From: an uncultured Planctomycetia bacterium
GTDB taxonomy: Bacteria; Omnitrophota; Gorgyraeia; Gorgyraeales; Gorgyraeaceae
Length of the DNA stretch: 39,655 nucleotides
NCBI GenBank assembly: GCA_964637815.1
Contig: CAZWYD010000001.1
Span: 1-39,655, forward strand
Direction: 5' to 3'
Shown: piece after piece, positions 4,902 to 38,014 of the stretch
Numbering within the stretch: position 1 is the stretch's first letter
Layout: each line of letters begins with the position of its first letter
Notes under the pieces: generated by a model
Seen by the model: the letters and a program-made list of their open reading frames with translations, nothing else
The model's database searches: none
Told to the model about the DNA's origin: nothing
Translations under genes and position numbers: made by a program

Positions 4902-4902
4902 A

Positions 4903-4931: not shown

Positions 4932-4932
4932 T

Positions 4933-6546: not shown

Positions 6547-6555
6547 AAGATTAAT

Positions 6556-9350: not shown

Positions 9351-9364
9351 CGAAAGAAGGATTT

Positions 9365-10675: not shown

Positions 10676-10676
10676 A

Positions 10677-11600: not shown

Positions 11601-11602
11601 TT

Positions 11603-12634
11603 ATGAAAATAGTATTTCGCTGTGATGCATCTTTTGATATTGGATTAGGTCATTTGGTAAGATCTTTGGCCTTAATAGAAGAACTTGTCTCGCGTAATCA
11701 TGTTATCCTAGCAACAATCGAAGATGGAGCAAAGCCATATATTAGCAAGAGGGTTAATGAATTTGATACATTTTTTAAAGAAAAAAATGAAGGAGAAGAG
11801 GAGTTTTTAAGGCGCATAAAGGTTATTTTGAAGCCTAACGTTGTTGTTATAGATAAAAAATATCCCTATAGCTCAGAATTTCTGAATCAGTTAAAAGGAG
11901 AGAATATCAAGATTATAATGATAGACAATATCTGTGAAGGACTTTGTGCTTCAGATGAGATCATATTTCCTACAGCGCATCTTGATAAGACCCTGTTAGA
12001 AAAATATTTATCACAGGAGAAGATTGATAGTGTGAAGACAGGGTTTGAATATATAATCTTACGCAAAGAGGTCTTGGCATTAAAAGATAAAACCCAGCCT
12101 GGTTTACATACATCGTCGAGAGTTGTCGTGACTACTGGTGGTACTGATCCTGAAGGCGTTTTACTCAAGTTGATTCCTTGGATAAAGGACATGGCTTTAG
12201 ATGCTAGAATCTTGTTATTACTTGGTCAGTCGTTCAGATTTAGAAATGAACTTAAGCACTTGGTAACTGATTTGCCAAACAATATTCACCTTATGTCATA
12301 TTCTTTAAAGGAGGTTATAAAAGGAGATATAGCAATCTGTACTTTTGGTGTGAGTGTATATGAAATGATTTACCTTGGCATACCAACTATATGTATCTCA
12401 CACAATATCGAAAATGCAGATGGTGCGAGGATGTTAAAGAAAAGATGCGGTGTTATAGAAAATCTTGGTTATGTCGAGGATATTAGTGTTCAGAGTTTAC
12501 ATTCAGCAGTCATAAAATTGTTATCTGACAGAATGCTTTGTCGCAATATTTTCGAGAAGTCCCGTAATTTAATAGATGGTAGAGGCATAAAGAGGATTAG
12601 TCAGATAATTACAAGGGCTAGATTATATGTCTAA
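11603..12634 (+). CDS. pseG: PseG/SpsG-like UDP-sugar hydrolase (GT-B, GT28 C-terminal-like)
   Basis: KIVFRCDASFDIGLGHLVRSLALIEEL is the typical PseG N-terminus, and VVVTTGGTDPEG lies at mid-protein. The ATG at 11603 is preferred over the TTG at 11597. Confidence 0.7.
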   Translation: MKIVFRCDASFDIGLGHLVRSLALIEELVSRNHVILATIEDGAKPYISKRVNEFDTFFKEKNEGEEEFLRRIKVILKPNVVVIDKKYPYSSEFLNQLKGENIKIIMIDNICEGLCASDEIIFPTAHLDKTLLEKYLSQEKIDSVKTGFEYIILRKEVLALKDKTQPGLHTSSRVVVTTGGTDPEGVLLKLIPWIKDMALDARILLLLGQSFRFRNELKHLVTDLPNNIHLMSYSLKEVIKGDIAICTFGVSVYEMIYLGIPTICISHNIENADGARMLKKRCGVIENLGYVEDISVQSLHSAVIKLLSDRMLCRNIFEKSRNLIDGRGIKRISQIITRARLYV

Positions 12635-13565
12635 AACTAAAGCTTTTGTCTATCCACCTACAGGCTTGGAACATTATGGTAGCTTAGTAGATTCTATAGA
12701 TGGCTTCGACGTAATTGAATGCGAGTGTTGTGGATTTAAGCATATTATTCCTATCCCGACGCCACAGAAATTAGATGATTTATACAAGGATAGATTTTAT
12801 TCAACCGAGAAGCCTAGATATTTTAAGGAAGCAGAAGAGGATATAGAATGGTGGGAGATGACATACCGCAATTATTACAAATTATTTGAAAGTCATCTTT
12901 CAAAAAACAGCAGGAGATTGCTTGAAGTTGGGTCAGGCCCTGGGTATTTTTTGAAATGCGGCAAAGAATTAGGATGGTCTGTGGTTGGATTTGAACCATC
13001 AAAACAGGCGTATGAGTATTCTCAGAGATTTGATGTAGAAGTTATAAACAAATTTTTTGACAAAAGAGTCACAACTGATCATGACAAGTTTGATGTTGTA
13101 TATATGAATATGGTTATTGAGCATCTGCCAGATCCATTGTCGTTGATCAAGGCTGTAAAAGAAGCATTAAGGCCTGATGGAATTATTTGCATTATTGCAC
13201 CCAATGATTATAATCCTTTGCAAAAGATTGCCAGGAATGATTTATGTTGCGAATCATGGTGGATAGCCCCACCGCAACATATAAATTATTTTGATTTTGA
13301 ATCAATTGCAAGATTTCTTGGAAAGGCTGATTTCGATATTGTAGAGTCTATGGCAACTTTTCCCATGGAGTTCTTTTTATTGAGTGGGGACAATTATTTG
13401 AGCAATAATGAAGTAGGTAGAGAATGTCATTCCAGACGCAAGATGTTCGAGGTAAATATGTATAAAAATGAAGCGGAATATTTGAACAAGGTCTATAGAG
13501 ATTTGGCTTCTAATGGTATAGGAAGAGAATTTCTGATTATCGGAAGGCTGCGTAATAATGGATAA
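12627..13565 (+). CDS. Class I SAM-dependent methyltransferase
   Basis: It carries SAM motif I (LLEVGSGPGYFL), the acidic loop VVGFEPS and post-motif VVYMNMVIEHLPDP...LRPDGIICIIAPN. A CxCC cluster sits near the N-terminus. It overlaps the upstream gene by 8 nt. Confidence 0.82.
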   Translation: MSKTKAFVYPPTGLEHYGSLVDSIDGFDVIECECCGFKHIIPIPTPQKLDDLYKDRFYSTEKPRYFKEAEEDIEWWEMTYRNYYKLFESHLSKNSRRLLEVGSGPGYFLKCGKELGWSVVGFEPSKQAYEYSQRFDVEVINKFFDKRVTTDHDKFDVVYMNMVIEHLPDPLSLIKAVKEALRPDGIICIIAPNDYNPLQKIARNDLCCESWWIAPPQHINYFDFESIARFLGKADFDIVESMATFPMEFFLLSGDNYLSNNEVGRECHSRRKMFEVNMYKNEAEYLNKVYRDLASNGIGREFLIIGRLRNNG

Positions 13566-13590
13566 TAGATTTTAGAATTGGAGCGAAGGA

Positions 13591-15153
13591 ATGAAGAATA
13601 CAGTTGTTTTATTTAAGCCAAGGACATATCCTAAGGGTTCCCGCAACGATAGAATGACCCCTGTGCATTTACCGCTGGGTTTATTGACAGTAGCATCTCC
13701 TTTAGTCAGGGATGGTTATCGCGTTGTTGTATATGATGAAAATTTTGAGGAAGATATTAAAACTAAACTACAGGTCTTAAAAGACGATATTATCGCGATT
13801 GGAATAACAGCCCAGACAGGGTATGAGATTGTGGGTGGGGTAAGGATGTCAAAATATGCTAAAGAGACGTTAAAGGTTCCTACTATATGGGGAGGTTGGC
13901 ATCCTTCGACTGTACCACGCCAGACAGCAGAAAACATATACGTAGATTTCGTTGTGAAGGGCGCAGGGCAGCAGACTTTATTAGATTTGATAAAGGCTAT
14001 AAATAATGACCTGTCTTTTAAGGATATCGAAAGTATACTGTATAAAAAAAATGGTAATATCTTTGAGAATCGCACCAGGAGGTTAATGGATATAAACAAC
14101 TATCCTTTGCCTAGTTATGATCTTGTTGATGTGGAGAAATATATTCAAGACGGGTGCAATAAAGGTACGGGTATATCAAACGATGTCCATTTTAAAAAAG
14201 AAAGAATGCTTATGTATGTTACAAGCTATGGATGTGTACATAGATGCAGGTATTGCGCAGCTACCAGTGTATTTAATCGCCAGATAACACTTTTAAAGGC
14301 CGAAACAGTAGGAGAACAGTTAGAGTCTCTTGTAAAAAAATATAATATCCAAACCATATTTTTTATTGATTCCAATTTCTTTGCTAGCGCAGAAAGGGTT
14401 AAAAAGATATGCAATGAGATTTTAAAAAGAAGACTAAATATTAAATATGTAGCAGATCCACGCGTGGATCACATAATGAGATGGGATGGCAGTGTGCTTC
14501 CGCTGTTGAAAAAGAGTGGCTGTGTATGGTTAGGTGTTGGCTCAGAATCAGGCTCTCAGAATATTTTAGATTATATGCAGAAGGACATAAAGGCTTCTGA
14601 TATCATGAAGGCAGCAAGAAAGGTTCTTGCTGCAGGCATAGACGTGACTTTCTTTTTTATGTTTGCCATGCCAATGAACGAATCAAAAAAGGATCTTTTT
14701 GAGTCTTTAAAACTTGCAGCTCAATTGAAAGAGTTGTATCCAAAAATTTTACTCCCAATGTATTTTTATGACCCATTTCCAAGCACGCCTATGTACTATG
14801 ATGCAGTAAAAAGTGGATTTAGAGAGCCTAACTCTCTTGAAGAATGGGGACATCGCATACCTGATGTTATAGACAAAAACCCTTTAACTCCTTATGTAAG
14901 CGATAGATATGTGGATATGGTTAAAAGAGTTATAATCTTTTATCTGCCATTGACATATCCCGCAGATATGGTTTTGGGTACATTAACGCATATTAAAACA
15001 CAGATGAAAAAAGGAAGATATAAATATCTTCTTAGGTTTTTACATGTATTGGCCCGGATTAGAACAAGGCACCAATTTTATTATATCCCTGTTGAATGGA
15101 TGGTATTCAAATTTGTCCAGAAACTAATGCCACATAGGATATATAAGAAATAA
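13591..15153 (+). CDS. B12-binding-domain radical SAM protein (class B-like) no. 1
   Basis: The N-terminal Rossmann/B12-like region is VVLFKP...LPLGLLTVASPL...IGITAQTG...IWGGWHPS. The CxxxCxxC cluster CVHRCRYC is at nt 14233-14256. A GGAGCGAAGGA RBS lies upstream. Confidence 0.85.
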   Translation: MKNTVVLFKPRTYPKGSRNDRMTPVHLPLGLLTVASPLVRDGYRVVVYDENFEEDIKTKLQVLKDDIIAIGITAQTGYEIVGGVRMSKYAKETLKVPTIWGGWHPSTVPRQTAENIYVDFVVKGAGQQTLLDLIKAINNDLSFKDIESILYKKNGNIFENRTRRLMDINNYPLPSYDLVDVEKYIQDGCNKGTGISNDVHFKKERMLMYVTSYGCVHRCRYCAATSVFNRQITLLKAETVGEQLESLVKKYNIQTIFFIDSNFFASAERVKKICNEILKRRLNIKYVADPRVDHIMRWDGSVLPLLKKSGCVWLGVGSESGSQNILDYMQKDIKASDIMKAARKVLAAGIDVTFFFMFAMPMNESKKDLFESLKLAAQLKELYPKILLPMYFYDPFPSTPMYYDAVKSGFREPNSLEEWGHRIPDVIDKNPLTPYVSDRYVDMVKRVIIFYLPLTYPADMVLGTLTHIKTQMKKGRYKYLLRFLHVLARIRTRHQFYYIPVEWMVFKFVQKLMPHRIYKK

Positions 15154-15173
15154 TCCAAAGGAGGAAACAAGTA

Positions 15174-16382: not shown

Positions 16383-16397
16383 TAAGGGTGACCTCAA

Positions 16398-17630: not shown

Positions 17631-17635
17631 ATAAT

Positions 17636-18592
17636 ATGCAAAGAATGATGAAGATATTGTATCTTGGGTCAGGACATGCTTCAATCCAGGCATTTTGCAA
17701 TCTGGCAGAAAAAAAATTCAATATAACTGGATTAGTTCTTTCAAAAGTTCCGAAAAATATACCTTCGAGGTCTTCTGGTAGTGACGCTATTAAAAAAGCA
17801 GCCATGCAGTATAATATAAAAGCATATTCTTATACTGAATTATTAAAGGCTGTAAAAGAAACTTCTCCTGAGTTGATAGTTGTAAATAATTTTATTGATA
17901 TAGTACCTCCGAAAATTATAGATAATTATAAATGTATCAATTTGCACTATGCCTTATTGCCTAAATATAGGGGGCTGCATGCTACGCAATGGGCATTGAT
18001 AAATTGCGAAAAGGAGGTGGGTTTTACCGTACATTTTATGACGAGAGGGTTTGATGATGGTGATATCCTGTATCAGGGCAGGATAAAGGTCTGTGATAAT
18101 GATACTATAAACACGCTATATTCTAAGCTTAATAAAGAATCAGCCATGGCATTGCCAAAGGTGGTTGAGCAGATTGAGAAAAATACCTATAAAGCGGTTT
18201 CGCAGAACGAACGCATGGCTACCTATGTGCAGAGAAGATATCCGTCGGACGGTCTGATAAACTGGAATTCAACGTCATTAGAGATATTTAATCTGATAAG
18301 GGCGCTGGCATATCCTTATCCAGGCGCTTATACTTTTTATAAAAATGAGAAATTGATAATATGGAAGGCATCGCTTTGCAAATCTCCTTTTTATAAAGAG
18401 ATACCGGGCCGTGTGGTTAAAATTACAGAAAAAGGTATTTTGGTAAAAACCAGAGATAATCTTCTTAATGTCGAGAAAGTGCAGTATGGTAAAAACAAGA
18501 CACGGGATGCTAGCGCGCTTTTTAGGAAACCAGGGGCAAGATTAGGCATAAGTATGAACGATTTAATACAGAAATATATGGGACCGGCTTAG
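17636..18592 (+). CDS. Formyltransferase (Fmt/ArnA-N/sugar N-formyltransferase family) with Fmt-like C-terminal domain
   Basis: CINLHYALLPKYRGLHATQWALIN provides the Asn/His motif and FDDGDIL the catalytic Asp context. The C-terminal YPGAYTFY...LIIWKA resembles the Fmt C-terminal domain. Confidence 0.85.
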   Translation: MQRMMKILYLGSGHASIQAFCNLAEKKFNITGLVLSKVPKNIPSRSSGSDAIKKAAMQYNIKAYSYTELLKAVKETSPELIVVNNFIDIVPPKIIDNYKCINLHYALLPKYRGLHATQWALINCEKEVGFTVHFMTRGFDDGDILYQGRIKVCDNDTINTLYSKLNKESAMALPKVVEQIEKNTYKAVSQNERMATYVQRRYPSDGLINWNSTSLEIFNLIRALAYPYPGAYTFYKNEKLIIWKASLCKSPFYKEIPGRVVKITEKGILVKTRDNLLNVEKVQYGKNKTRDASALFRKPGARLGISMNDLIQKYMGPA

Positions 18593-18594
18593 AT

Positions 18595-19968
18595 ATGTTT
18601 TATTATAAACTTACACCCGCGAGTTGCAAAAAGATTAAGACCAGATACAGAAAAATTGTAACAGGGCTTCCTGTAAAGGAATCTGTGCGTATCTTAAAAG
18701 AGATGCATAAGTTTGAACCTAGATCGGTATCTGGCCAGCCTCCAATTATCTGGGATTGCGCAGAAGGAGTAAATGTGTTTGATAAATATGGCAATATGTG
18801 GCTGGACTGGAGTTCTGGAGTTTTAGTGGCGAATTCCGGCCATAGCAGAGGCAGGATTAAGAAAAGTATCTCAGATCTGATTAATAAAAGCCTTATATTC
18901 TCCTATTATTTTCCGACAGAGGTTCGGATCGAACTGGCAAAAAGAATAATAGCTATTTCACCTAAGGGCTTGGACAAGGTATTTTTATTAACCACAGGCG
19001 CAGAGGCTACTGAAAATGCCTTAAAACTTGCCAAGACTTATGCGTTAAAAAAATACGGGAAAGAGAAAAAAATTATCTTAAGTTTCATTAATGCATTTCA
19101 TGGACGCACAATGGGTGCGCAGCTAATGGGAGGCAATCCAAAGGCCAAGGAGTGGATAGGCGAGTTGGATAAAACATTTATTCAGGTTCCATTTCCAGAT
19201 GGATTTAGGGATAAAAATACAGATTTCCACTTTTTCTTAAAGGAATTAAACAAAAATAACATAGCCCCTTCTCAAGTTGCGGGCGTAATTATGGAATCAT
19301 ATCAGGGAGGAGGAGCAAGTTTTGCACCGAAAGAATATGTAAGGAGGCTTTTAGAATGGTGCCATAAAAGCGATATTTTGTTTATAGCTGATGAAGTTCA
19401 GTCAGGTTTTGGTCGCACCGGTAGGCTGTTTGCTTTTGAACATTATGGCGTAGTTCCGGATATTGTATGCTGCGGAAAAGGAATTACAAGTTCTCTGCCC
19501 ATGTCCGCTGTTATAGGAAGGAAAGATATATTGGATTTATACGGGTCAGGCGAGATGTCGAGTACTCATGGCGGACATCCATTGTCCTGTGCTGCTGCGT
19601 TGGCTAATATTGAGATTTTATTTGAAGAGGATTTGATTGGGAATGCGTTAAAGTTGGGGAAAGTGTTAACAGCTTCTTTGGAAATATTGAAAAATAAATA
19701 TCCTGATATTATCGGAGCTGTGCATGGTAAAGGTCTTGTCAGTGGCCTGCACATTATTAGGTCAAGAAAAAATATGGAACCAGATACTGATAAGGCGCAT
19801 TCTATTGTAGAGAGATGTTTCAGGAGAGGTTTGCTTATATTTTCTCCTGTGGGATACGGTGCTGCTACCATAAAGATTGCACCGCCTTTGATTATAAATA
19901 AAGAAGCGCTTCTTGAAGGAGTTTCTGTGTTGGACGAGGCAATAAGCGGGGCAGGAAAAGAGATATAG
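18595..19968 (+). CDS. Class III (omega-type) PLP aminotransferase
   Basis: TTGAEATENALKLA, ADEVQSGFGRTG, the PLP-lysine context CCGKGITSSLPMSAVIG and STHGGHPL fit this class. Confidence 0.85.
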   Translation: MFYYKLTPASCKKIKTRYRKIVTGLPVKESVRILKEMHKFEPRSVSGQPPIIWDCAEGVNVFDKYGNMWLDWSSGVLVANSGHSRGRIKKSISDLINKSLIFSYYFPTEVRIELAKRIIAISPKGLDKVFLLTTGAEATENALKLAKTYALKKYGKEKKIILSFINAFHGRTMGAQLMGGNPKAKEWIGELDKTFIQVPFPDGFRDKNTDFHFFLKELNKNNIAPSQVAGVIMESYQGGGASFAPKEYVRRLLEWCHKSDILFIADEVQSGFGRTGRLFAFEHYGVVPDIVCCGKGITSSLPMSAVIGRKDILDLYGSGEMSSTHGGHPLSCAAALANIEILFEEDLIGNALKLGKVLTASLEILKNKYPDIIGAVHGKGLVSGLHIIRSRKNMEPDTDKAHSIVERCFRRGLLIFSPVGYGAATIKIAPPLIINKEALLEGVSVLDEAISGAGKEI

Positions 19969-19971
19969 GAC

Positions 19972-20736: not shown

Positions 20737-20755
20737 ACAGGAAAGCACAGGCAAT

Positions 20756-22786: not shown

Positions 22787-22845
22787 TTATATAGTGACCA
22801 CTTTGGAAAAGAAAGCAAAAATAGATATCAGGAAGGAGTTCGAAT

Positions 22846-23574
22846 ATGAGCAGAGTAAGTTTTGAAAATTTTGGAAAACTCGCGCGGTCTTTAAAAGACC
22901 CTACTTTGGCATCAGGAAGATATAGCATACAGGAAGGCGATAAGAAAAAGATTACAGGAGACGTCATAAAAAAACTTGAGTTAAAACCGGAAGATCGTGT
23001 TTTAGAAATAGGTTGCGGCGTAGGAGATTTGTTAATTCCCCTTTCTTTTTTTGTCAAAGAGATTACAGGCATTGATCATGAATCCTGCCTGAAGAGCCTG
23101 TGCAGAAGGCTTGGAAGGGTCGATAATATCCGACTTATTCAGGGAAATTTTTTTGATATTTGTCCGAATAAGGCCTATGATAAAATATTATGTTATAGTG
23201 TTATACAATATATTAAAGACAAAAAGGAAGTTTTTAATTTCATAGATAAGGCCTTACGCCTATTAACACCTGGAGGAATGGCGCTTTTCGGAGATATACC
23301 GAATCAATCTACGAAAGAAAGATTTCTTAACTCTGAACATGGCAGGCAATTTGTCAAAGAGTGGCAGGTTTTGATGAATGTGGAAAAATCCAAAGGCCAT
23401 AAACAGATAAATTTAACACAGGACAAAGGATTGGCAAGGTTTGATGATAATCTCACGCTAGCTGTATTAAAGAAGTTTCGGCTGAAGGGATATCATACAT
23501 ATATTCTTGCTCAGCCACCTGATCTTCCTTTTGGAAACACCCGTGAAGATATTCTTATTGTAAAGACATCATGA
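22846..23574 (+). CDS. Class I SAM-dependent methyltransferase
   Basis: It carries SAM motif VLEIGCGVGDLL, ITGIDHE and LTPGGMALFGDIPN. An AGGAAGGAG RBS lies upstream. Confidence 0.8.
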   Translation: MSRVSFENFGKLARSLKDPTLASGRYSIQEGDKKKITGDVIKKLELKPEDRVLEIGCGVGDLLIPLSFFVKEITGIDHESCLKSLCRRLGRVDNIRLIQGNFFDICPNKAYDKILCYSVIQYIKDKKEVFNFIDKALRLLTPGGMALFGDIPNQSTKERFLNSEHGRQFVKEWQVLMNVEKSKGHKQINLTQDKGLARFDDNLTLAVLKKFRLKGYHTYILAQPPDLPFGNTREDILIVKTS

Positions 23575-23593
23575 TATATCAAGGAGAAGGGAT

Positions 23594-24580
23594 ATGAGAA
23601 ACAGCAGGCAGAATCTAGTAGAGTTATGGCGTACAGGACCTTTTAATTTACCATTAAAGGATAAAAGGCGTTTTACTCTGAAATATATATTTCCTAGTGG
23701 CAGGCAGGCTATAGCTTGTTCATTAAAGCATGCGGGCTTAAGTCGTTCCAGGAGGATGGCTTTCCCAGAATGGAGTTCGCATTGTGTTATAAGCGCATTG
23801 GGAAGGCATGTTACTCCTGTGCCCCTAAATGAAGTTCTCAAATATGGCATTGAGATAGACGCTGTGTTATTGTATGAACAATGGGGTTGGCCTTTTACAA
23901 ACTCTGCATGGGAGGCTCTGGAAGAAAGATTTAAGAATAAAATAATAATATTGGATATGGTTGATTCAGCCGATTTTTATTTTAACAGGAGAGAATGCCC
24001 AAACTGTAAAACTTTAATAGAGATTTTGAGTCTGAACAAGATATTGGGCTTGCGTGGTGGTGGTTTAGCATATTTTAATAGAAGACCTTTGGTATTCGCG
24101 CCTACCTTAAAATCACAATTGACAAAGATGCTTGACGATCAAAGGAAAAACAGTATCTTTAAAAAGGATTTTGGATACAGGGACTATTTTCAAAATAGCG
24201 ATCAAGCAGTAAATCCTGCAATCGTAAACTGGGTAAAACAAAATGACCTTTTGGGCGCAATTGAAGCAGAAAGGGAAATTAGACAGAACAACCTTCATTT
24301 TTTATTAAGGAGCCGCTTTTCTTCCTGTTGGCCTAAATGGATGGTAGATGTTGTAGAAAATGGCGCGGGCCCAGGAATAGCACCAATTATGAAAGGGGCA
24401 GGGGAGAAAAGGTTAAGGACGCTAGCGTCTGTTTTGGAAAAAGAACATAAAATGAGAGCTGTTATTTACCACTTTAACTGGTCAGGAAATCCGCTGAAAC
24501 CGTCTTATGAAAAGTGTCTTGCTGTTCCTGTACATGGTATGGTTAAGGATTTATACAGTATTTTAAAGAACATAAGGTAA
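23594..24580 (+). CDS. Hypothetical protein, divergent DegT/PLP-dependent-transferase-like fold
   Basis: Segments line up by eye with DegT landmarks: SGRQAIACSLKHAGL (cf. SGTAAL), IIILDMVDSA (cf. vIEDaAqA) and LSLNKILGLRGGGLA (cf. FSFHxxKxxxxGEGG). Overall similarity is weak. The coding call is good but the function call is tentative. Confidence 0.4.
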   Translation: MRNSRQNLVELWRTGPFNLPLKDKRRFTLKYIFPSGRQAIACSLKHAGLSRSRRMAFPEWSSHCVISALGRHVTPVPLNEVLKYGIEIDAVLLYEQWGWPFTNSAWEALEERFKNKIIILDMVDSADFYFNRRECPNCKTLIEILSLNKILGLRGGGLAYFNRRPLVFAPTLKSQLTKMLDDQRKNSIFKKDFGYRDYFQNSDQAVNPAIVNWVKQNDLLGAIEAEREIRQNNLHFLLRSRFSSCWPKWMVDVVENGAGPGIAPIMKGAGEKRLRTLASVLEKEHKMRAVIYHFNWSGNPLKPSYEKCLAVPVHGMVKDLYSILKNIR

Positions 24581-24585
24581 TTAGT

Positions 24586-25704
24586 ATGAAATTTGCGGAG
24601 TTCAATGATTTTACGCCTCAAGAATGGGATGACTGCATAAAAGCGGTTCCTGAGTCTACGTATCTGCATAGTTCATGGTGGTTAAGGTATTTGAACGCGA
24701 TGCATTCTGACGTAGTCAATAAAAGCTTTATTTTATTTGAAGGAGCGTTGCCTATAGCAATTTGCCCTATCGCTGTGCATAAGACAAGCAATTTGGGGAT
24801 GGAATACATGGAGGCGACGTTTGGCGGTTTTTCAAGCATTTATCCTGCAATAATTAAACTGCCTCCGACTCAAAGAAGGCGGGTTGTCCGTAAAGTTTTT
24901 GCTCTGATGGACGAAAGAATGGAGATGTGTGAAGTTAAAAACTCCAGGCTTTTCAGACATCCTATAAACTTAGATGTTATGAACGGAGGGCTCAGTATTA
25001 CTAATATGACCGAGGGTATTTCACATGGTTATATCCCTTATGTGAAGAATTCCGTGATAATAGATCTCAGAAAAGAAGAAGATTGCCTGATGCATGAGAT
25101 GAGCCAGTACCAGCGGAAAAATATAAGAAAGTCAGAAAAACAAAAGTTGTCTGTAAAGGAATACAGGGGCGAAGCCAAAGATACAGATGAAATTTTCGAT
25201 GATTTTAAATCTGCACATTTCAATAGTTCTGGCCGGCTTACCAGGCCTATGGAGACGTGGGACATGATGAAGGATTTGTTAAAGAAGAATATGGCCGTGC
25301 TATTTGCTGTCTCTACAGAGGAAGGAAAGAATATTAGTTATTTATATTGCGGAGAATTTCACAAATTCTGTTTTGGATGGTCGCAGGTTAACCTTAAGGA
25401 ATGCGAAGGTTTCCATTCTCCTCGCCATCTTTTAGAATGGGAAGCCATGTTGTTTTATAAAGCAAGGGGGTTTTATTTTTATGAAATCGGTCCCAAGAAT
25501 GATTCGTCTCAGCCGAATCATATTCCTACATATAAGGAATCGACTATCTCTCAGATAAAGGAGAGATACGGCGGAGATTTATATTGCTGGCTTTATTTTG
25601 AAAAATTTTTTGATAAAAGATTATTCGAGACAGTATATAATGATAGATTGAAAAATTTTTTAGCCTCCAATTATTTTTTACGCAAGGATACAAATGAAAC
25701 ATAG
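24586..25704 (+). CDS. FemAB-family / double-GNAT (aminoacyl-tRNA-dependent peptidyltransferase-like) protein
   Basis: Size (372 aa), an N-terminus of the FemX type (W..C......TYLHSSWWLRY) and the central EMSQYQRKNIRKSEKQKLSVKEY motif fit FemAB-like transferases. Confidence 0.65.
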   Translation: MKFAEFNDFTPQEWDDCIKAVPESTYLHSSWWLRYLNAMHSDVVNKSFILFEGALPIAICPIAVHKTSNLGMEYMEATFGGFSSIYPAIIKLPPTQRRRVVRKVFALMDERMEMCEVKNSRLFRHPINLDVMNGGLSITNMTEGISHGYIPYVKNSVIIDLRKEEDCLMHEMSQYQRKNIRKSEKQKLSVKEYRGEAKDTDEIFDDFKSAHFNSSGRLTRPMETWDMMKDLLKKNMAVLFAVSTEEGKNISYLYCGEFHKFCFGWSQVNLKECEGFHSPRHLLEWEAMLFYKARGFYFYEIGPKNDSSQPNHIPTYKESTISQIKERYGGDLYCWLYFEKFFDKRLFETVYNDRLKNFLASNYFLRKDTNET

Positions 25705-27568
25705 AAGAACAGTTATATTTTTGGATTATTTTGAAAGCCTGGAAAGAGTTGCACCTCTTGTGCATCGAATATGTTCGAGGTTTAAGGAAAAGCCTGTCGT
25801 GGTATCTTCTAATTTTGATCACAGCCCATTAAATAAATATTCAAATTTTGAGTTAGTTTATTTTGAAGAGTTTTTATCAAAGGAAGATTTTGTGTTTATG
25901 GAACAGTTTGTTTTTGATTTGACTCATCGCTGGTATGCAGGCTTAAGAAATAACGAAAGATTGGGCAAGACAAGGCAATATCTGGACATTGAATTTGGCT
26001 TCTTGGCAGAACATAAGATACAGCCGTTTTTTGCCTTCATGGTAAAAAAACTTGAGATCGCCTTGAAAATAATAGAATATTATAAGCCTACCCACATGAT
26101 TTTGATAGGCGAGCCGTGCATATTTAAAGAACTTTCTGAGTTGATAAAAGAAGACATTGGTATTTCTAGCGCATTTGTCAATTGCAAGGAAGAAAGGTTT
26201 TCCATAAAAAGGGCGTTTAAAAAGCTGCGCTATTTTGCATCAGAAATAGCATCGGATACTTTTGATTTTTTCATGCGTTTTATTGTAACTAGGAGAAAAC
26301 TTACAGGATGCGAGGTTTTTATAGACAATCGCCTTTATTTTAAATCCAAGGATTTAGCGAAACAATTTCAGACCTTTGTGTATGTTATAGGAAAAAGCTT
26401 GCAGATAAGATTGAAGCTCATCAAGGAAAAGAAAGTTTTTGCCCCTATCCTGGTAGATGATATGGTGAAGATACCTGATATTTTCAGCAGTTTTTATTGG
26501 AATTGGAGGTTAATAGAGAGAGATAAAAAATTCCAAGATAATTTCAGGTATAGGAATGTGCTGATATGGAAGATTATGAAAAGAGCCATAAAGGAGCTGA
26601 TTATTATTGATTTTCCGAAAATAAGAAAAAATATCATTTTTTTACAAAAATTATACAACGTTATTACGCCAAAGATGGTTGTTTTAAGAGAGGCTGTGCG
26701 GACTCCGGAAAAGACAATAGTATATACAGCCAGGGAAAAAAGTGTTTTGACCCTTGTTGCGCAACATGGTATCTTAGCTGCCTCCGGAGTATATACGGCT
26801 ATTCATTCAAACAAGATAGCTTTATGGGGCAGGGTTGGCATTGAATGGTATAGAGGCCATAATAATGATGTATCAAAATGTGTAGTTACAGGCAATCCGG
26901 ATCACGATTTTTGGTATTTTGAAAAAAATGGCGAAAAGGACAAGGTAAAAAGCATGCTTGCAAAGATCGGAATAAACCAAGGCAGGGATATCATTGCATA
27001 TCTTCCAGGATATTTTAAACTTAATAGGCGATTAGATCTTTCAGTATATCACTCTCAGGATTCAGAATTTATATCGCTGGAATCTGTCCTGAATGTTGCA
27101 AGATATTTTCCCGACAAATGTTTAATAATCAAAATTCATCCTTATGATACTATTGACATAAATTTTTTGCGTAATTACAGGGTAAAATATTATCCGAACG
27201 TTTTCATTGTAAAGAATGAAATTGATACAATAAACCTGATCCGCGAAAGCTCCTTGGTAGTTACTTCTCTTTTCTCATCTGCCGGCATAGATGCCGTTAT
27301 ACTGAAAAAACCTCTCATTACGCTGAATCTCTATAATAAGGAAGACTTTGCCCCTTTCGCACGACGCGATGTAGCTGTGAGTGTTAATAAAACAGAAGCA
27401 TTACTCGAAGCAGTGAATCAAATTTTTATTGACGGGAAGATAAAAGAAATAATGAGTATAAACAGAGATGCTTTTATATATGATTATGTTTATAAGATAG
27501 ACGGTAACTCAACAAAAAGGCTTTGGGAATTAATCAAAGGCTCAATATATGAGCAGATAGAAAAATGA
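25694..27568 (+). CDS. Large uncharacterised protein with GT-B-like C-terminal half carrying an HP motif (KpsS/TagF/sialyltransferase-like); candidate nonulosonate or phospho-sugar transferase
   Basis: The C-terminal half has VVTGNPDHD, IIKIHPYD (HP at nt 27137-27142) and SSLVVTSLFSSAGIDAVILKKPLI. I recognise nothing in the N-terminal 330 aa. It overlaps both neighbours (11 nt upstream, ATGA downstream). Confidence 0.4.
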   Translation: MKHRRTVIFLDYFESLERVAPLVHRICSRFKEKPVVVSSNFDHSPLNKYSNFELVYFEEFLSKEDFVFMEQFVFDLTHRWYAGLRNNERLGKTRQYLDIEFGFLAEHKIQPFFAFMVKKLEIALKIIEYYKPTHMILIGEPCIFKELSELIKEDIGISSAFVNCKEERFSIKRAFKKLRYFASEIASDTFDFFMRFIVTRRKLTGCEVFIDNRLYFKSKDLAKQFQTFVYVIGKSLQIRLKLIKEKKVFAPILVDDMVKIPDIFSSFYWNWRLIERDKKFQDNFRYRNVLIWKIMKRAIKELIIIDFPKIRKNIIFLQKLYNVITPKMVVLREAVRTPEKTIVYTAREKSVLTLVAQHGILAASGVYTAIHSNKIALWGRVGIEWYRGHNNDVSKCVVTGNPDHDFWYFEKNGEKDKVKSMLAKIGINQGRDIIAYLPGYFKLNRRLDLSVYHSQDSEFISLESVLNVARYFPDKCLIIKIHPYDTIDINFLRNYRVKYYPNVFIVKNEIDTINLIRESSLVVTSLFSSAGIDAVILKKPLITLNLYNKEDFAPFARRDVAVSVNKTEALLEAVNQIFIDGKIKEIMSINRDAFIYDYVYKIDGNSTKRLWELIKGSIYEQIEK

Positions 27569-28902
27569 AGCACAAGATCATTTTATTTTTTCCAACTATA
27601 ACAGATACGGATATTGAAGCGCAGTATGAATATCCATGGATGCCGCTATCTGTCCTTGCCCTTGCCAAGCGACTGATAGATGATGGCTATTCGGTTAGAA
27701 TTATAGATGAACGCGTCGAGGATGAATCTATTTGGAAAGAACAACTTAAGACTATACGGCCAGACGAACTTGTTTTTGCGGGCGTTTCTTGCATGACAGG
27801 AAGGCAGATTCATTATGGATTAAAATTTTCTGCTGCGATTCGTCAGTTATTTCCTCAAACTAAGATTGTGTGGGGAGGTTATCACCCTACGATATTTTCC
27901 AAAGAAGTAGCAGTGCATCCTTTTGTAGATTATGTATTTGCAGGCCATGCAGAGAAAAATATTGCTCGGTTTGCTAGGATGCTGAGCGAAGAGAAAGAAG
28001 AGGAATTGGAAGGGATATTGGGTCTTTGTTTTGTGAAAGCGGACGGATCTTTTGTATCCAAACCAAGGATAAAAGAGATAGATTTAAGTGTTTTTTTAAG
28101 TATGCCACTTGAACTATTGGATATATCAAAATACCTTCATCCTGATACACAGCGCATGCCTTTTATATCTTCTGTCGGATGCGTAAATCGCTGTTCTTTT
28201 TGTTATCAAGGGTCTTATTATTGTTCCATGTCTCCGCATGAATTAGTTGATAGGCTTCTGCATTACATGGATAGATATGGTGTGAAAGGATTCAGATTTT
28301 TCGACCCTAATTTTTTTGTCTCAAGGAAACGCGTCATAGATTTTTGTTCCGAGGTTTTGAAGAGGAAGTTGAAGATAGATTGGATTGCATTCGGCGACCT
28401 TGTTGTGCTGAGGAAATATTCCAAAGAAGATATGAAGCTTGTTTATGAAGCTGGATGCAGCAGTATCAGCATAGGTGTTGAAAGTGGCTCTCCTAAGTTA
28501 TTAGAATTATTAGCTAAAGGCCATAAACCGGATGATCTTTTGGAATTCATGGAGAGAACAATGGACATACCCTTGCATTTGACGCTGTACTATATGTTTG
28601 GCTTGCCCTATGAAGATATAGAGGATTTTAACATGACTGTGGCTCAGATTCGAAAAGCAGTATCTATTAAGAAAGAAGTTACGCCAGGATCATTTTTTTA
28701 TGCCCCTATCCCTGCTGTTAAGCTTCAGGAAGTATGTAAATCATATGGTTATCAAGAGCCTGATTCGCTGGAAGACTGGGGTAGGATTGACCTTGCAACA
28801 CATGATGATTTCAGGGAATACCCGTGGACGAAAGGGTTGTATACAGAATACTATCGTAGGACTTTTAAGGAAGTCTTTGGAGAGAATGAAAGACATACAT
28901 AA
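27565..28902 (+). CDS. B12-binding-domain radical SAM protein (class B-like) no. 2
   Basis: The N-terminus is ILFFP...MPLSVLALAKRL...GVSCMTGRQI...VWGGYHPT. The CxxxCxxC cluster CVNRCSFC is at nt 28180-28203, followed by ISIGVESGS. Confidence 0.85.
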   Translation: MKHKIILFFPTITDTDIEAQYEYPWMPLSVLALAKRLIDDGYSVRIIDERVEDESIWKEQLKTIRPDELVFAGVSCMTGRQIHYGLKFSAAIRQLFPQTKIVWGGYHPTIFSKEVAVHPFVDYVFAGHAEKNIARFARMLSEEKEEELEGILGLCFVKADGSFVSKPRIKEIDLSVFLSMPLELLDISKYLHPDTQRMPFISSVGCVNRCSFCYQGSYYCSMSPHELVDRLLHYMDRYGVKGFRFFDPNFFVSRKRVIDFCSEVLKRKLKIDWIAFGDLVVLRKYSKEDMKLVYEAGCSSISIGVESGSPKLLELLAKGHKPDDLLEFMERTMDIPLHLTLYYMFGLPYEDIEDFNMTVAQIRKAVSIKKEVTPGSFFYAPIPAVKLQEVCKSYGYQEPDSLEDWGRIDLATHDDFREYPWTKGLYTEYYRRTFKEVFGENERHT

Positions 28903-30013
28903 TTTTTTTAAAAAAGAAAAAAATAGAAAAAGGCTTAATAGGAAAATTCTTTTTTTCACTATGGGGAATAAAGAGCTTGCAAGCACGCGCACGAGAGTGC
29001 ATGGATATCTCCCTTATTTGCGAAAAAGCGGGTTTGATTATTTAATAATTTCTTATACTGCTGCGTGGTATTGTCGCCTGTTTACTAGGGGAAAAGATTA
29101 TATTTTATTTAGGTTGTTTAATAAATTTTATAGCTGCCTGAGTGTTTTAAGGTTAATTTTTCAAGCAAAGAATTTTGACGTGATTTTTATACAGAGAGTT
29201 TTGTTTAGGAAAGCAATATTCAGAATAATATGCAGGCTTAACCCTAATATAATTTTTGATTTTGACGATGCTATATATTTGACAAACACTAATTGTAATT
29301 CTGGAAATAACAGAGATAAATTTTTATCTCGTTTCAATTATATCGTGAAACATTCCAAACGTGTAATTACCACGCAGAGTGAATTTAATCGTTCTATAGC
29401 AATAAAGATCAACAAGGATATAACCAGCTTGACGACCCCAATCAATACAAATAGATATTTTCCATCCAAAACTAAAATAATAAAAGAAAGAGTTATTGGT
29501 TGGATAGGTAGCCCTGCCACAACGCATTACCTTTATGGGTTAAGGGATGTATTTCGGACTGTGGTAAAAAAATATCCTGATGTAAAGATTGAACTGATTG
29601 GCGCCAAGAGATTTAAGATAGAGGGCATAAATTTGATATTTAAAGAATGGGATATCAAGACAGAGGTTAAGGATTTGCAGAATTTCGATATAGGGATTAT
29701 GCCTTTAGAAGATGATGACTGGTCCAGAAATAAATATTACAAACTGTTGCAATATTTTTCCATGGGCATCCCTGCTGTTGTTTCATCGGTTGGTGTCTGT
29801 AAGGGCATGATTGAAGATGGCCTTAATGCTTTTTTAATCAGAGATGAAAAAGATTGGATAGAGAAATTGTCCAGTTTAATTGAGAATGATGAATTAAGAA
29901 GCAAAATAGGCATGCATGCGAGAAAAACAGCAGAATCTTTTTATTCATATGAAGTGACCGCCCCTATTTTAATAGGTGTGTTTAATGATCTTGTAGAACG
30001 GAGAAGAACATGA
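28886..30013 (+). CDS. Glycosyltransferase family 4 (GT-B, group 1)
   Basis: The C-terminal half IGWIGSPATTHYL...IGIMPLEDDDWSRNKYYKLLQYFSMGIPAVVS...GLNAFL is a typical group-1 EX7E-type region. The start is uncertain. ATG 28886 keeps the KILFF beta-strand and ATG 28961 is the alternative, while the track's start at 28700 lies inside the preceding gene. Confidence 0.75.
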   Translation: MKDIHNFFKKEKNRKRLNRKILFFTMGNKELASTRTRVHGYLPYLRKSGFDYLIISYTAAWYCRLFTRGKDYILFRLFNKFYSCLSVLRLIFQAKNFDVIFIQRVLFRKAIFRIICRLNPNIIFDFDDAIYLTNTNCNSGNNRDKFLSRFNYIVKHSKRVITTQSEFNRSIAIKINKDITSLTTPINTNRYFPSKTKIIKERVIGWIGSPATTHYLYGLRDVFRTVVKKYPDVKIELIGAKRFKIEGINLIFKEWDIKTEVKDLQNFDIGIMPLEDDDWSRNKYYKLLQYFSMGIPAVVSSVGVCKGMIEDGLNAFLIRDEKDWIEKLSSLIENDELRSKIGMHARKTAESFYSYEVTAPILIGVFNDLVERRRT

Positions 30014-31449
30014 AAACAGATTTTCTGCTCATAAATCCTCCTTGCAGAGCTGCGTATTTAGTCCCAATAGGATTAGGGTATATCGCAAGTGTCATCAAAA
30101 AAGAAGGTTATAGTGTTAAAATATTGGATATTAATGCGCTTAAGCTATCTGATGAAGAAGTCAGGGAAACAATAAAAAAACTTGAATTCGATATAGCTGG
30201 TATAGGCGGGTTGACACCTACCTATAAATATGTAAAGTGGTTGGCAGATACAATTAAGACGTATAAGCCTGATGTTACTGTAGTAGCTGGCAATATGGTA
30301 GCTACTGCTCATCCAGAATTGCTGCTAAGAAATAGCAGGGTGGATATAGCTGTCATAGATGAAGGCGAGGCGACAATAAGAGAACTTGTTCCTGCTATCC
30401 TTAACAAAAAAGATTTTAGCGAGATAGATGGTATTTTTTATAAGTCTAAAGACAACGAAATATTAAAGACTTCTCCAAGAAAAAGGATTTTAGACCTTGA
30501 TTCTCTGCCTTTTCCTGCATGGGATTTGTTTCCTATGGAGATTTATCTTGATAATCCTATGCAGGCAAGGACTATGGTGGTTTCTGCTGTAAGAGGATGT
30601 CCATATGAATGCACCTTTTGTTCGCATCCTTTTGGCAGACGCGTTACCTTTAGGTCAGCGGGAAGCATTGTGGAAGAGATAAAAGAGCTTAAAGAAAGAT
30701 ATAATATAAAAATGACAGGATTTTCTGATGACTTATTTTTGATTAATAGAAAGCTTGTTTTGGAATTTTGCGACAGGATGATAGCCGAAAAGGTAAATAT
30801 TGAATGGGGATGTGCTGCAAGAGTGAATCTAGTTGACGACAGTCTACTGAGAAATATGCGCCTGGCAGGCTGCGTAGAATTGGGATATGGTTTTGAAAGC
30901 GGAAGCCAAGCGATGTTGGATAGAATGAAGAAGCGCGTTACTGTCAAACAGGCAGAAGAAGCTGTTAAGGTGACAAGGCGAGCAGGTATGAAAATCACAG
31001 GTTCTTTTATATTAGGTATGCCAGGAGAGACAGAAAGCACAATCAAAGAGACTTTGGATTTCATTAAAAGGACACGCCTACCTATGCGCCGTTTTTTTTA
31101 TGCCACACCCTATCCTAAAACAGAACTTTATGAATTTGCTAAACAATTGAGACGCTTGCCTGCTGACGAAGACAAATATGTGGAGAGCTTAGGTGAGATG
31201 CGCTTGACTTTTCTTGTGAACCTGACTGATTTTCCGGATAAGAAGCTTGTTAGTTTAAAAGAGTCTGCTGAAAAGATTGCTAAAAGAAACTTGAGTTTTA
31301 GATTTAAGTTTGAAGAGTTTATGCGAGATTGGCTAAGAAGATTTACTGTTATTCGGCTGAGTCTTAAAGATTCGGGAGTATTAGTTACAATAAAAAAAAT
31401 ATTTCTTAGGATTCAATATAAACTGATTAAAAACCGCAACTTGAAGTAG
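30010..31449 (+). CDS. B12-binding-domain radical SAM protein (class B-like) no. 3
   Basis: The N-terminus is LLINPP...VPIGLGYIASVIKKEGYSVKILD...GIGGLTPTY. The CxxxCxxC cluster CPYECTFC is at nt 30598-30621, followed by LGYGFESGSQ. Its ATG overlaps the GT4 stop (ATGA). Confidence 0.88.
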   Translation: MKTDFLLINPPCRAAYLVPIGLGYIASVIKKEGYSVKILDINALKLSDEEVRETIKKLEFDIAGIGGLTPTYKYVKWLADTIKTYKPDVTVVAGNMVATAHPELLLRNSRVDIAVIDEGEATIRELVPAILNKKDFSEIDGIFYKSKDNEILKTSPRKRILDLDSLPFPAWDLFPMEIYLDNPMQARTMVVSAVRGCPYECTFCSHPFGRRVTFRSAGSIVEEIKELKERYNIKMTGFSDDLFLINRKLVLEFCDRMIAEKVNIEWGCAARVNLVDDSLLRNMRLAGCVELGYGFESGSQAMLDRMKKRVTVKQAEEAVKVTRRAGMKITGSFILGMPGETESTIKETLDFIKRTRLPMRRFFYATPYPKTELYEFAKQLRRLPADEDKYVESLGEMRLTFLVNLTDFPDKKLVSLKESAEKIAKRNLSFRFKFEEFMRDWLRRFTVIRLSLKDSGVLVTIKKIFLRIQYKLIKNRNLK

Positions 31450-31463
31450 TATAAAAATTTGTT

Positions 31464-32966: not shown

Positions 32967-32970
32967 AATT

Positions 32971-34439: not shown

Positions 34440-34444
34440 ATAAA

Positions 34445-35119: not shown

Positions 35120-35154
35120 AGAAGAAGACATAGTTGTAAAGAAAGAGGTTTTTT

Positions 35155-36309: not shown

Positions 36310-36310
36310 T

Positions 36311-37033: not shown

Positions 37034-37037
37034 TTTT

Positions 37038-38009: not shown

Positions 38010-38014
38010 AAGAG

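Follow-up and report, generated by a model that had tools for sequence, protein, structure and literature searches.

Three separately recurring, nonulosonate-associated gene modules form a mosaic upstream of a Wzx flippase gene in an Omnitrophota polysaccharide locus

Organization of the locus

The 39.6-kb stretch of DNA analysed here (39,655 nucleotides of contig CAZWYD010000001.1, assembly GCA_964637815.1, from an uncultured bacterium placed in the Omnitrophota by GTDB; hereafter the window) is a single co-directional polysaccharide locus with a uniform G+C content of ∼37%. Gene order was assigned from matches to Pfam and NCBIfam profiles. This report concerns the interval 12627-31449, an island of tailoring genes located between a core for a pseudaminic acid (Pse)-type nonulosonic acid (NulO) and the gene for a Wzx flippase (Table 1). 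The results presented below show that the island is a mosaic of three modules, named A, B and C, which recur separately and are each tied elsewhere to NulO genes.

The 5′ end of the locus is occupied by the gene for an SLBB (Wza-type) export protein and an open reading frame (ORF) with weak likeness to Wzz. Genes for a sugar C-methyltransferase, an RmlC-like protein and RmlD come next, followed by the Pse core, the island and wzx. Downstream of wzx lie an amino-sugar block of the WbpB/WbpD/PglD/DegT type (with a WbpB/WbpE/WbpD-like diamino-sugar module at 32971-36309), a GT2-type glycosyltransferase, an epimerase, a further DegT and a truncated GT-C gene.

All ORFs of at least 100 aa within the island are on the plus strand. 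With corrected start codons the island holds 15 genes, five junctions of which overlap. An earlier reading made from the sequence alone (the sequence-only reading) had described a tightly packed run of 16 genes; the run is real, but the genes number 15, as they do in that reading's own list. Its other statements on packing were borne out. No gap exceeds 59 nt once the GH57-like gene is started at ATG 20756 and the GT4 gene at 28886; the PseG-like gene ends at 12634 and MT1 starts at 12627, giving the 8-nt overlap; and the island runs into the flippase gene, which begins at 31464. All domains that it named are present, including those of the three class I S-adenosylmethionine (SAM) methyltransferases (MT1, MT2 and MT3), the ATP-grasp ligase, the formyltransferase (Fmt), the omega-aminotransferase, the IolB-like ketol isomerase, the GH57-like protein and the FemAB-like transferase (Table 1), but its descriptions of the 624-aa and the DegT-like protein needed correcting (see below).

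Table 1. Features of the NulO core, the island and the flippase gene. Values are E-values or bit scores of profile matches.
Feature	Positions	Strand	Module	Basis
Pse-type NulO core: PseB, PseC, short NeuB-type, SpsF-type cytidylyltransferase, GSA-like class III aminotransferase, aldo-keto reductase, PseG-like	5575..12634	+		
MT1, class I SAM methyltransferase	12627..13565	+	A (first gene)	Methyltransf_23 2.8e-25
rSAM1, B12-binding radical SAM	13591..15153	+	A	Pfam; CVHRCRYC at residue 215
MT2, SAM methyltransferase, 402 aa	15174..16382	+	A	Pfam matches
ATP-grasp carboxylate-amine ligase, L-amino-acid-ligase type, 410 aa	16398..17630	+	A	LAL_C2, ATP-grasp_3, ATP-grasp_4
Formyltransferase (Fmt), N and C domains	17636..18592	+	A	Formyl_trans_N, Formyl_trans_C
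Class III (omega) aminotransferase	18595..19968	+	A	Aminotran_3 2e-89
IolB/KduI-type ketol isomerase	19972..20736	+	A	KduI 5e-74; TIGR04378 231, cut-off 205 (equivalog)
GH57-like protein, GH38/GH57-clan fold	20756..22786	+	A (anchor)	PF03065 49.2, gathering 21.2
MT3, class I methyltransferase	22846..23574	+	B (first gene)	Pfam matches
PLP_IMCC1989-family protein, probable PLP enzyme	23594..24580	+	B	TIGR04422 3e-5; precomputed PF27889 match
FemAB_IMCC1989-like transferase	24586..25704	+	B	TIGR04421 4.8e-13 (below cut-off); Acetyltransf_6
624-aa HP-motif GT-B protein, putative NulO transferase	25694..27568	+	C (first gene)	Glyphos_transf, Capsule_synth
rSAM2, B12-binding radical SAM	27565..28902	+	C	Pfam; CVNRCSFC at residue 206
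GT4-type glycosyltransferase, 375 aa	28886..30013	+	C	Glyco_trans_1_4, Glycos_transf_1
rSAM3, B12-binding radical SAM	30010..31449	+	C	Radical_SAM 1.4e-24, B12-binding 1.7e-19; CPYECTFC at residue 197
Wzx flippase, downstream end of variable region	31464..32966	+		Polysacc_synt, Polysacc_synt_3

Module A recurs in NulO loci of many phyla

Module A consists of MT1, rSAM1, MT2, the ATP-grasp ligase, Fmt, the omega-aminotransferase, IolB and the GH57-like protein, and its multi-phylum core is formed by the ATP-grasp and GH57-like genes. Its distribution was determined in a census of one genome per GTDB species anchored on the GH57-like protein. This yielded 234 relatives, the best 80 loci of which were taken with 10-kb flanks and searched with all window proteins (tblastn), and all their ORFs were clustered. 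Percentages are given for the 58 of these 80 loci that have at least 9 kb of upstream DNA.

At least one of NeuB, a PseG-like protein or the cytidylyltransferase is encoded in 44 of the 58 loci (76%). An ATP-grasp homolog is present in 53 (91%) and MT1 in 35 (60%), where its homologs (37-54% identity) follow the PseG-like gene. Among all 80 loci, 41 have the ATP-grasp gene immediately before the GH57-like gene, and in ten an IolB gene adjoins the latter; a formyltransferase homolog was found in three, Methanocalculus among them. The recurrent order is PseC, short NeuB, cytidylyltransferase, (glutamate-1-semialdehyde (GSA)-aminomutase-like aminotransferase, aldo-keto reductase (AKR)), PseG-like, MT1, a variable stretch, ATP-grasp, (aminotransferase, IolB), GH57-like. 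Carriers of these loci belong to Omnitrophota, Acidobacteriota, Desulfobacterota, Geobacter, Actinomycetota, Patescibacteria and Thermoplasmata, and include a cultured methanogen, Methanocalculus taiwanensis.

In the window the variable stretch consists of rSAM1 and MT2, and Fmt, the aminotransferase and IolB sit between the ATP-grasp and GH57-like genes. Elsewhere the variable stretch most commonly contains additional ATP-grasp paralogs, a transketolase (either split or fused) or an acetolactate synthase (ALS)-like thiamine pyrophosphate (TPP) enzyme, and a FabG-like short-chain dehydrogenase/reductase (SDR). The combination of TPP enzyme and SDR might conceivably serve a two-carbon branching reaction of the YerE/YerF type. 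The order ATP-grasp, aminotransferase, IolB, GH57-like recurs in M. taiwanensis and in two actinobacterial metagenome-assembled genomes (MAGs), and orthologs of the omega-aminotransferase (51-55% identity) were found between ATP-grasp and IolB genes in survey loci L089, L090 and L068. Only about seven rSAM1 orthologs were found (59-64% identity). In L099 (Desulfobaccales) and L100 (another lineage) they are located directly upstream of the ATP-grasp/GH57-like pair (62-63% identity), and both of these loci have two further B12 radical SAM genes and an MT2-sized methyltransferase gene. Methyltransferases of 391-403 aa are encoded at the relative position of MT2 in L098, L099 and L100; they are only 21-25% identical to the window methyltransferases (21-23% in L099 and L100) and are matched by MT1 rather than MT2, so that their orthology to MT2 is not established.

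At the protein level, the best solved matches of the ATP-grasp ligase are 4dim, BL00235, RizA and BacD. The formyltransferase has intact N102-x-H104 and HYALLPKYRG motifs and falls short of the cut-offs for Fmt and ArnA. The omega-aminotransferase remains under every NCBIfam cut-off; IolB passes that of TIGR04378.

Two cultured carriers of module A were identified, M. taiwanensis P2F9704a and Desulfuromonas sp. CSMB_57, which brings the module within experimental reach. As a separate observation, genes for an adenylylsulfate (APS) kinase and a sulfotransferase lie between the PseG-like and the methyltransferase/radical SAM genes in L099 (1314-3122) and L100 (780-3147), and a sulfotransferase gene is also present in L028; this hints at sulfated versions of the module A decoration.

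The GH57-like protein retains the catalytic residues of its clan

The anchor of module A is currently annotated as "glycoside hydrolase family 57" only. Public gene calls place its start at GTG 20711 or ATG 20792. We consider ATG 20756 the most likely start because it restores the conserved N-terminal FHLN motif of the family. Homologs number more than 2600, in 479 clusters at 50% identity (E ≤ 1e-30). When the family profile was compared with solved sequences, only the catalytic domain of the 4-alpha-glucanotransferase of Thermococcus litoralis was matched; residues E110 and D209 align with the catalytic E123 (nucleophile) and D214 (acid/base) of 1k1w and are invariant in 23 sequences. An AlphaFold2 model of the protein (pLDDT 82.6) retrieved GH38 7ufu (E 3e-20) and GH57 1k1x with Foldseek, and the match covers the barrel, the helical linker and the beta-sandwich. 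The protein thus genuinely belongs to the GH38/57 clan, and its catalytic carboxylates are preserved. The genomic context argues against a role in alpha-glucan metabolism, NulO genes being found nearby in 76% of the loci. We also considered a de-N-acetylase of the same clan, and set this aside as the less likely option on account of the invariance of both GH57 catalytic carboxylates.

Module B corresponds to a PLP/FemAB gene pair found near Pse genes

The second gene of module B encodes a protein that the sequence-only reading had called degenerate DegT-like. This description does not hold: the protein belongs to the PLP_IMCC1989 family (PF27889/TIGR04422), and the Asp/Lys motif for pyridoxal phosphate (PLP) is kept, D121 and S146-x-x-K149 being invariant in eight homologs. 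Because the invariant Asp and S-x-x-K are retained, the protein is probably an active PLP enzyme. Comparison of its sequence with those of solved structures gave nothing meaningful. Together with the FemAB-like transferase it misses the cut-offs of the family pair TIGR04421/TIGR04422 (49 vs 250 and 23.6 vs 75, respectively).

A metagenome scan anchored on the PLP_IMCC1989-like protein provided 18 loci. MT3 homologs (47-55% identity) were found directly upstream of PLP_IMCC1989 homologs, with a FemAB-like gene alongside. The PLP and FemAB genes are adjacent, or flank MT3, in L101, L104, L105, L107, L109, L110 and L111, and are adjacent in the window. Neighbours in these loci include PseB, PseC, NeuB, cytidylyltransferase, GSA-like aminotransferase and AKR genes; PseB, PseC or NeuB lies near the pair in all those with flanking DNA (L101, L104, L110 and L111). 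No GH57-like, ATP-grasp or radical SAM gene was present in the PLP-anchored loci.

Module C combines a putative NulO transferase with two radical SAM proteins

Module C is made up of a BFO_1060-like transferase (the 624-aa protein), rSAM2, the GT4-type protein and rSAM3, after which comes Wzx. The C-terminal half of the 624-aa protein matches BFO_1060_trans (9.8e-17) and TIGR04396 (9e-11), both below cut-off; the BFO_1060 model NF046086 scores 61.1 against a cut-off of 200 and its match spans residues 372-616. K480-x-H482-P483 (six homologs) and H358-G359 are invariant. The family matches of the C-terminal half and the invariant K-x-H-P make this protein a second GT-B transferase, so that the island encodes two glycosyltransferases and not, as previously stated, only one conventional one. 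It is probably specific for NulO, as far as its family relationships tell. The BFO_1060 relatives Tanf_01245 and TFUB4_00887 of Tannerella have an HP motif, and their knock-out shows that they are needed for transfer of Pse or legionaminic acid (Leg) (PMC5420450). A profile of the 624-aa family gave nothing meaningful against the sequences of solved structures, and a single-sequence model of the protein (pLDDT 33) had no usable fold.

Genes for homologs of the 624-aa protein adjoin rSAM3-family genes in L093, L095, L096 and L119. An rSAM2 ortholog (68-69% identity) follows a 621-aa transferase in L093 and L097, and the GT4 protein has an ortholog in L093 (56% identity). Homologs of rSAM3 are many (43-79% identity), mostly from Omnitrophota; its nearest named homologs, like those of the GH57-like protein, come from Omnitrophota MAGs. 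In all five independent contexts inspected (79, 61, 53, 51 and 43% identity), the rSAM3-family gene adjoins NeuB, a cytidylyltransferase or a 590-620-aa HP-motif glycosyltransferase, and it is often beside Wzx too. One of these contexts, L120, has three B12 radical SAM genes and several methyltransferase genes. If radical SAM proteins do act on NulOs, the rSAM3 family would be the clearest case.

The three radical SAM proteins fall outside characterised subfamilies

In agreement with the sequence-only reading, PF02310 and PF04055 match all three B12-domain radical SAM proteins, and each has one intact CxxxCxxC motif. Their mutual identity is only ∼26%. None of the three contains a DxHxxG motif, which class B radical SAM enzymes often lack. 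The curated cut-offs for BchE, HpnJ, HpnR, PhpK, Mmp10, TsrM, KedN5, BzaD, AprD4, ArsL and ApyD were reached by none of them, the best NCBIfam scores being 218 for rSAM3 with BchE (cut-off 481), 120 for rSAM1 with TIGR04072 (360) and 95 for rSAM2 with BchE (481). With all scores this far under cut-off, none belongs to a known non-glycan family. Among solved proteins, AprD4 is the best match for all three; next come an unnamed radical SAM protein and then OxsB, CysS, TsrM and TokK. A sugar substrate is plausible from the gene context.

This relationship bears on a different view of the island, in which IolB, the aminotransferase, Fmt, the ATP-grasp ligase, the radical SAM proteins and the methyltransferases would constitute an embedded small-molecule pathway of the aminocyclitol/aminoglycoside kind. 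AprD4 is an aminoglycoside enzyme, IolB passes the equivalog cut-off for 5-deoxy-glucuronate isomerase, and clusters for natural products show a similar mixture of aminotransferase, methyltransferase and ATP-grasp genes. Yet the window contains no other iol genes, and the neighbouring GFO/IDH protein resembles UDP-GlcNAc 3-dehydrogenase (159 bits) rather than IolG (81 bits), for which reasons we rejected an inositol/aminocyclitol pathway. The block moreover lies between an SLBB/Wza-type export gene and a flippase gene, and in many phyla its genes show synteny with NulO genes. We regard this view as very improbable.

The Pse-type core lacks a canonical PseH

PseB (5575-6546; TIGR03589 493, cut-off 407.75) and PseC (6556-7734; TIGR03588 515, cut-off 423.5) are identified at equivalog level. 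The remaining core enzymes are more distant. The NeuB-type synthase (7735-8595) is a 286-aa protein without SAF domain for which Pfam NeuB is the sole domain match; it scores under the PseI cut-off (TIGR03586 176.7 vs 340.25) and under that for NeuB. The PseG-like protein (11597-12634) reaches 115.8 with TIGR03590 (cut-off 153.55). The cytidylyltransferase matches Pfam CTP_transf_3 and, weakly, KdsB-type NCBIfam models, and no PseF model matches it at E ≤ 1e-10. Domain scans detected no GNAT-type PseH in or near the Pse module, and the only acetyltransferase-like genes of the window are those for the FemAB-type Acetyltransf_6 protein and the downstream hexapeptide/PglD-type proteins. Given the lack of PseH in the module, one amino group of the NulO may stay free.

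Short NeuB proteins (269-316 aa) account for 22 of the 35 NeuB homologs in the GH57-anchored loci, SfmA of Shewanella oneidensis has 290 aa, and a short NeuB without SAF domain looks like a hallmark of this type of cluster. The class III aminotransferase of the core (9365-10675), which resembles GSA aminomutase, is unusually well conserved (52-68% identity to the window protein) in NulO loci of Bacteria and Archaea, including that of a Thermoplasmata MAG. We know of no role for this aminotransferase or for the AKR in the canonical Pse pathway, nor of one for the aminotransferase in Leg synthesis.

The island is a mosaic beside a conserved flank

The sequence-only reading had regarded the island as one 16-gene system. 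Its genes do not co-occur as a set, and the blocks differ in distribution. What did stand is the link of the tailoring chemistry to nonulosonate, since each block adjoins NulO core genes in unrelated genomes. The mosaic structure is also evident from the closest relative, L093/L097. The seven genes downstream of Wzx (from 32971 on) encode proteins with 91-96% identity to those of the window. Upstream of them identity is 79% for rSAM3, 75% for Wzx, 68% for rSAM2, 63% for MT3, 57% for the FemAB-like and GH57-like proteins, 56% for GT4, 52% for the PLP-like protein, 47% for MT1, 44% for the 624-aa transferase, 31% for NeuB and 27% for the PseG-like protein. The relative is without rSAM1 and MT2. 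It has a KduI-type gene and two SDR genes in place of Fmt, aminotransferase and IolB, and in addition a TylF-type methyltransferase and an insert of GT87, UbiA, rSAM-SPASM and epimerase genes. A serotype-like variable region next to a conserved flank shows this pattern, and a single conserved system does not. The identity gradient (28937-38711 compared with L093) is sharp and suggests that the NulO and tailoring region has been exchanged by recombination.

Could the 15 genes nevertheless constitute one dedicated pathway for a single elaborate substituent, inherited as a unit? Their tight packing, all in one direction, with overlaps at several junctions and no gap above 59 nt, would agree with this, as would the result of a promoter and terminator scan, in which no internal signal rose above shuffled controls, and the link of every part to NulO genes elsewhere. 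Against it, none of the 80 GH57-anchored loci contains MT3, the PLP-like protein, the 624-aa protein or GT4, the module B loci have neither module A nor radical SAM genes, and in the closest relative the skeleton is preserved with several cassettes exchanged. We consider inheritance as one pathway unlikely.

Flanking genes

The genes at 2251-4849 encode a TylC3-type NDP-hexose C-methyltransferase (Methyltransf_14 and Methyltransf_13), an RmlC-like protein of 154 aa and RmlD. They form a module for a C-branched 6-deoxyhexose, and the glycan may carry this as a second C-methyl sugar, made in the conventional way. The adjacent ORF (4873-5547; 224 aa, TTG start) combines a winged-helix helix-turn-helix domain (HTH_24/MarR_2) with only the C-terminal part of a C-methyltransferase domain and may represent either a small regulator or the remnant of a gene; an HTH_24 gene of 126 aa is also found in NulO locus L119. 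At the other end, a PMT_2 gene (GT-C, ArnT-like; 39153-39653) runs off the end of the window. Several metagenome contigs from JGI and ENA samples encode proteins identical to those of the window.

The presence of both the branched 6-deoxyhexose module and the diamino-sugar module raises the question of whether the substrates of the tailoring enzymes, or at least of some of them (rSAM2, rSAM3, GT4 and the methyltransferases in particular), are other sugars of the repeat unit, or its lipid carrier, and not the NulO. In line with such a role, the gene before rSAM3 in L093 is GT4 and not a NulO gene. On the other hand, the rSAM3 family keeps its place beside NeuB, cytidylyltransferase or HP-motif glycosyltransferase genes in the five contexts though the surrounding sugar genes differ, and rSAM1 orthologs are embedded between the SDR and ATP-grasp genes of module A. 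Action on other sugars is on balance rather improbable, though less so than a single inherited pathway.

Predicted pathway

Taken together, the data lead us to conclude that the interval, assembled from three NulO-tied modules, is probably the variable section for tailoring and transfer in a surface-glycan locus that depends on Wzx and makes a Pse-type NulO. Its most likely function is multi-step N-acyl, methyl and radical tailoring of this NulO. We place less confidence in any single step given below than in this general reading.

A guide to the possible chemistry is provided by sfmABCDE (SO_3261-SO_3265) of Shewanella oneidensis MR-1, which encode a short NeuB of 290 aa, a TPP enzyme, an SDR of the 3-oxoacyl-ACP-reductase type, a 395-aa methyltransferase and a 412-aa ATP-grasp protein (PMC3765264). 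They are required for a flagellin O-glycan that consists of a mono-N-acetyl Pse-like NulO of 274 Da and a 236-Da C9H16O7 group with zero to two O-methyls; mutation of the ATP-grasp gene led to a smaller mass loss than mutation of the other sfm genes, and PseB and PseC are present in this organism, with no clear PseH, PseG, PseI or PseF (PMC3765264). By analogy, a mono-N-acetyl NulO with a methylated C9H16O7 group fits acylation of a free NulO amine by the ATP-grasp protein. By our own arithmetic, C9H16O7 (236 Da, PMC3765264) equals a dideoxy-nononic acid, C9H18O8, minus water, i.e. a reduced nine-carbon acid resembling 2-keto-3-deoxynononic acid (KDN) in amide or ester linkage. Such a structure would be in keeping with a second role for the NeuB-type synthase, acting along with a reductase and the ATP-grasp ligase.

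For the window, we infer the following substrates and order of steps from gene content and context. PseB and PseC, the two enzymes identified at equivalog level, produce the UDP-4-amino sugar; completion and activation of the NulO backbone would be left to the PseG-like protein and the short NeuB, together with the SpsF-type cytidylyltransferase. The usual PseH acetylation would be replaced or supplemented, so that one amine may stay free. A sugar-acid-like side chain could then be shaped by the IolB-type isomerase and the omega-aminotransferase, with the GH57-like enzyme supplying or processing its precursor, and be joined to the free amine as an amide by the ATP-grasp ligase, by analogy with SfmE. 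The formyltransferase would cap an amine, MT1 and MT2 would methylate, and rSAM1 would modify an unactivated carbon, most simply by C-methylation. The three enzymes of module B (FemAB-like transferase, PLP enzyme, MT3) may add or edit a substituent of the aminoacyl type. The finished CMP-NulO would be transferred to the lipid-linked repeat unit by the HP-motif GT-B protein and a further sugar added by GT4, while rSAM2 and rSAM3 would act on CMP-NulO or on the lipid-linked glycan before Wzx flips the unit. More generally, we propose tentatively, and with somewhat less than even confidence, that several distinct lineages of B12-type radical SAM proteins have been recruited for direct action on NulOs or their N-acyl side chains, by C-methylation or another radical C-H functionalisation, and that a widespread GH57-like/ATP-grasp pathway for NulO side chains exists in Bacteria and Archaea.

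Several observations weigh against the pathway predicted here. B12 radical SAM genes are present in only 5 of the 58 GH57-anchored loci, a frequency that makes them accessory to module A. AprD4, the aminoglycoside diol dehydratase to which all three proteins are best matched, does not use cobalamin, and methylation by the window proteins is therefore not implied. The PglD/NeuD-type acetyltransferase encoded at 34445-35119 could stand in for PseH, which weakens the argument for a free amine. Likeness to the Shewanella proteins rests on gene content, domains and sizes, and the window has neither the TPP enzyme (SfmB) nor the SDR (SfmC) that are central to an Sfm-type module and that are present in most related loci. 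The window ATP-grasp ligase is only 27% identical to that of the closest relative. The weakest point is the role of the GH57-like enzyme, as an enzyme resembling retaining glycosidases has no obvious part in building an N-acyl chain.

Nonulosonic acids are major surface determinants. To our knowledge, cell-surface sugars have not been described as a substrate class for the cobalamin-type radical SAM superfamily. If the radical enzymes of the window do act on NulO, cobalamin-dependent radical SAM chemistry would extend from antibiotics and cofactors to cell-surface glycans, and this could account for unassigned NulO masses from environmental surveys. The enzymes that decorate NulOs are acknowledged to be poorly known (PMC5378307); the present analysis resolves one odd locus into three testable gene modules.

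Comparison with known systems

The sequence-only reading had held that no characterised glycan locus has this combination of genes. None was found in the literature searched, but parts of the island have described relatives, namely sfmABCDE (PMC3765264), the Tannerella transferases (PMC5420450) and the TIGR04421/TIGR04422 pair. For combinations of GH57, transketolase, ATP-grasp or B12 radical SAM with nonulosonic, pseudaminic or legionaminic acid, O-antigen or Omnitrophota, the searches retrieved nothing relevant, no paper was found that links B12 radical SAM or GH57-like enzymes to NulO loci, and for sfmABCDE only the original paper was found.

With the canonical Pse pathway (PseB, PseC, PseH, PseG, PseI, PseF) the window has PseB and PseC in common at equivalog level. 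It differs in being without PseH, in PseG-like, NeuB-like and cytidylyltransferase proteins that score below the family cut-offs, and in the extra GSA-like aminotransferase and AKR. N-acyl variants of Pse include acetamidino, formyl, hydroxybutyryl and glyceroyl forms. The window formyltransferase is compatible with the N-formyl variants, which are among those listed in PMC5378307.

By gene content sfmABCDE is the closest characterised system. Shared with it, at the level of domains and sizes only, are the short NeuB (286 aa), the ∼400-aa methyltransferase (MT2, 402 aa), the ATP-grasp ligase (410 aa) and nearby PseB and PseC; in both, a clear PseH, PseI or PseF is missing. Sfm-like gene content is also the commonest form of module A in the GH57-anchored loci, as in Geobacter locus L047, where the genes are DegT, NeuB (287 aa), PseG, two methyltransferases, an ALS-like TPP enzyme, SDR, ATP-grasp and GH57-like. 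In place of the TPP enzyme and SDR, the window has a B12 radical SAM, a formyltransferase, an omega-aminotransferase and an IolB gene, to which comes the GH57-like gene, not one of the five described sfm genes. Furthermore, sfmABCDE serves Maf-dependent flagellin glycosylation, whereas the window encodes a Wzx-dependent polysaccharide.

The 624-aa protein resembles Tanf_01245, TFUB4_00887 and BFO_1060 of Tannerella forsythia (PMC5420450) in its BFO_1060 match (9.8e-17), its Glyphos_transf domain of the TagB/TagF type, the HP motif and its location in a NulO locus. It is, however, ∼180 aa longer, its N-terminal ∼370 aa are unmatched, and its score of 61 is well under the cut-off (200). Module B has its counterpart in the catalogued family pair TIGR04421/TIGR04422. 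The GH57-like protein has the same catalytic Glu/Asp pair and the same overall architecture as GH57 (T. litoralis 4-alpha-glucanotransferase, 1k1w) and GH38 alpha-mannosidases, but its sequence identity is only ∼12%, it has no signal peptide by inspection, and adjoins an ATP-grasp protein in NulO loci.

GenK and GenD1 carry out C-methylations in gentamicin biosynthesis, and the literature found on class B radical SAM enzymes acting on sugars was confined to aminoglycosides. The window radical SAM proteins have the N-terminal B12-binding domain, radical SAM core and CxxxCxxC motif of GenK, GenD1 and AprD4, with AprD4 as best solved match. In contrast to these enzymes of antibiotic clusters, they are encoded in a cell-surface glycan locus and remain below every subfamily cut-off. 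New here is that several B12 radical SAM lineages, and likewise the GH57-like/ATP-grasp pair, are found embedded time and again in NulO loci across phyla.

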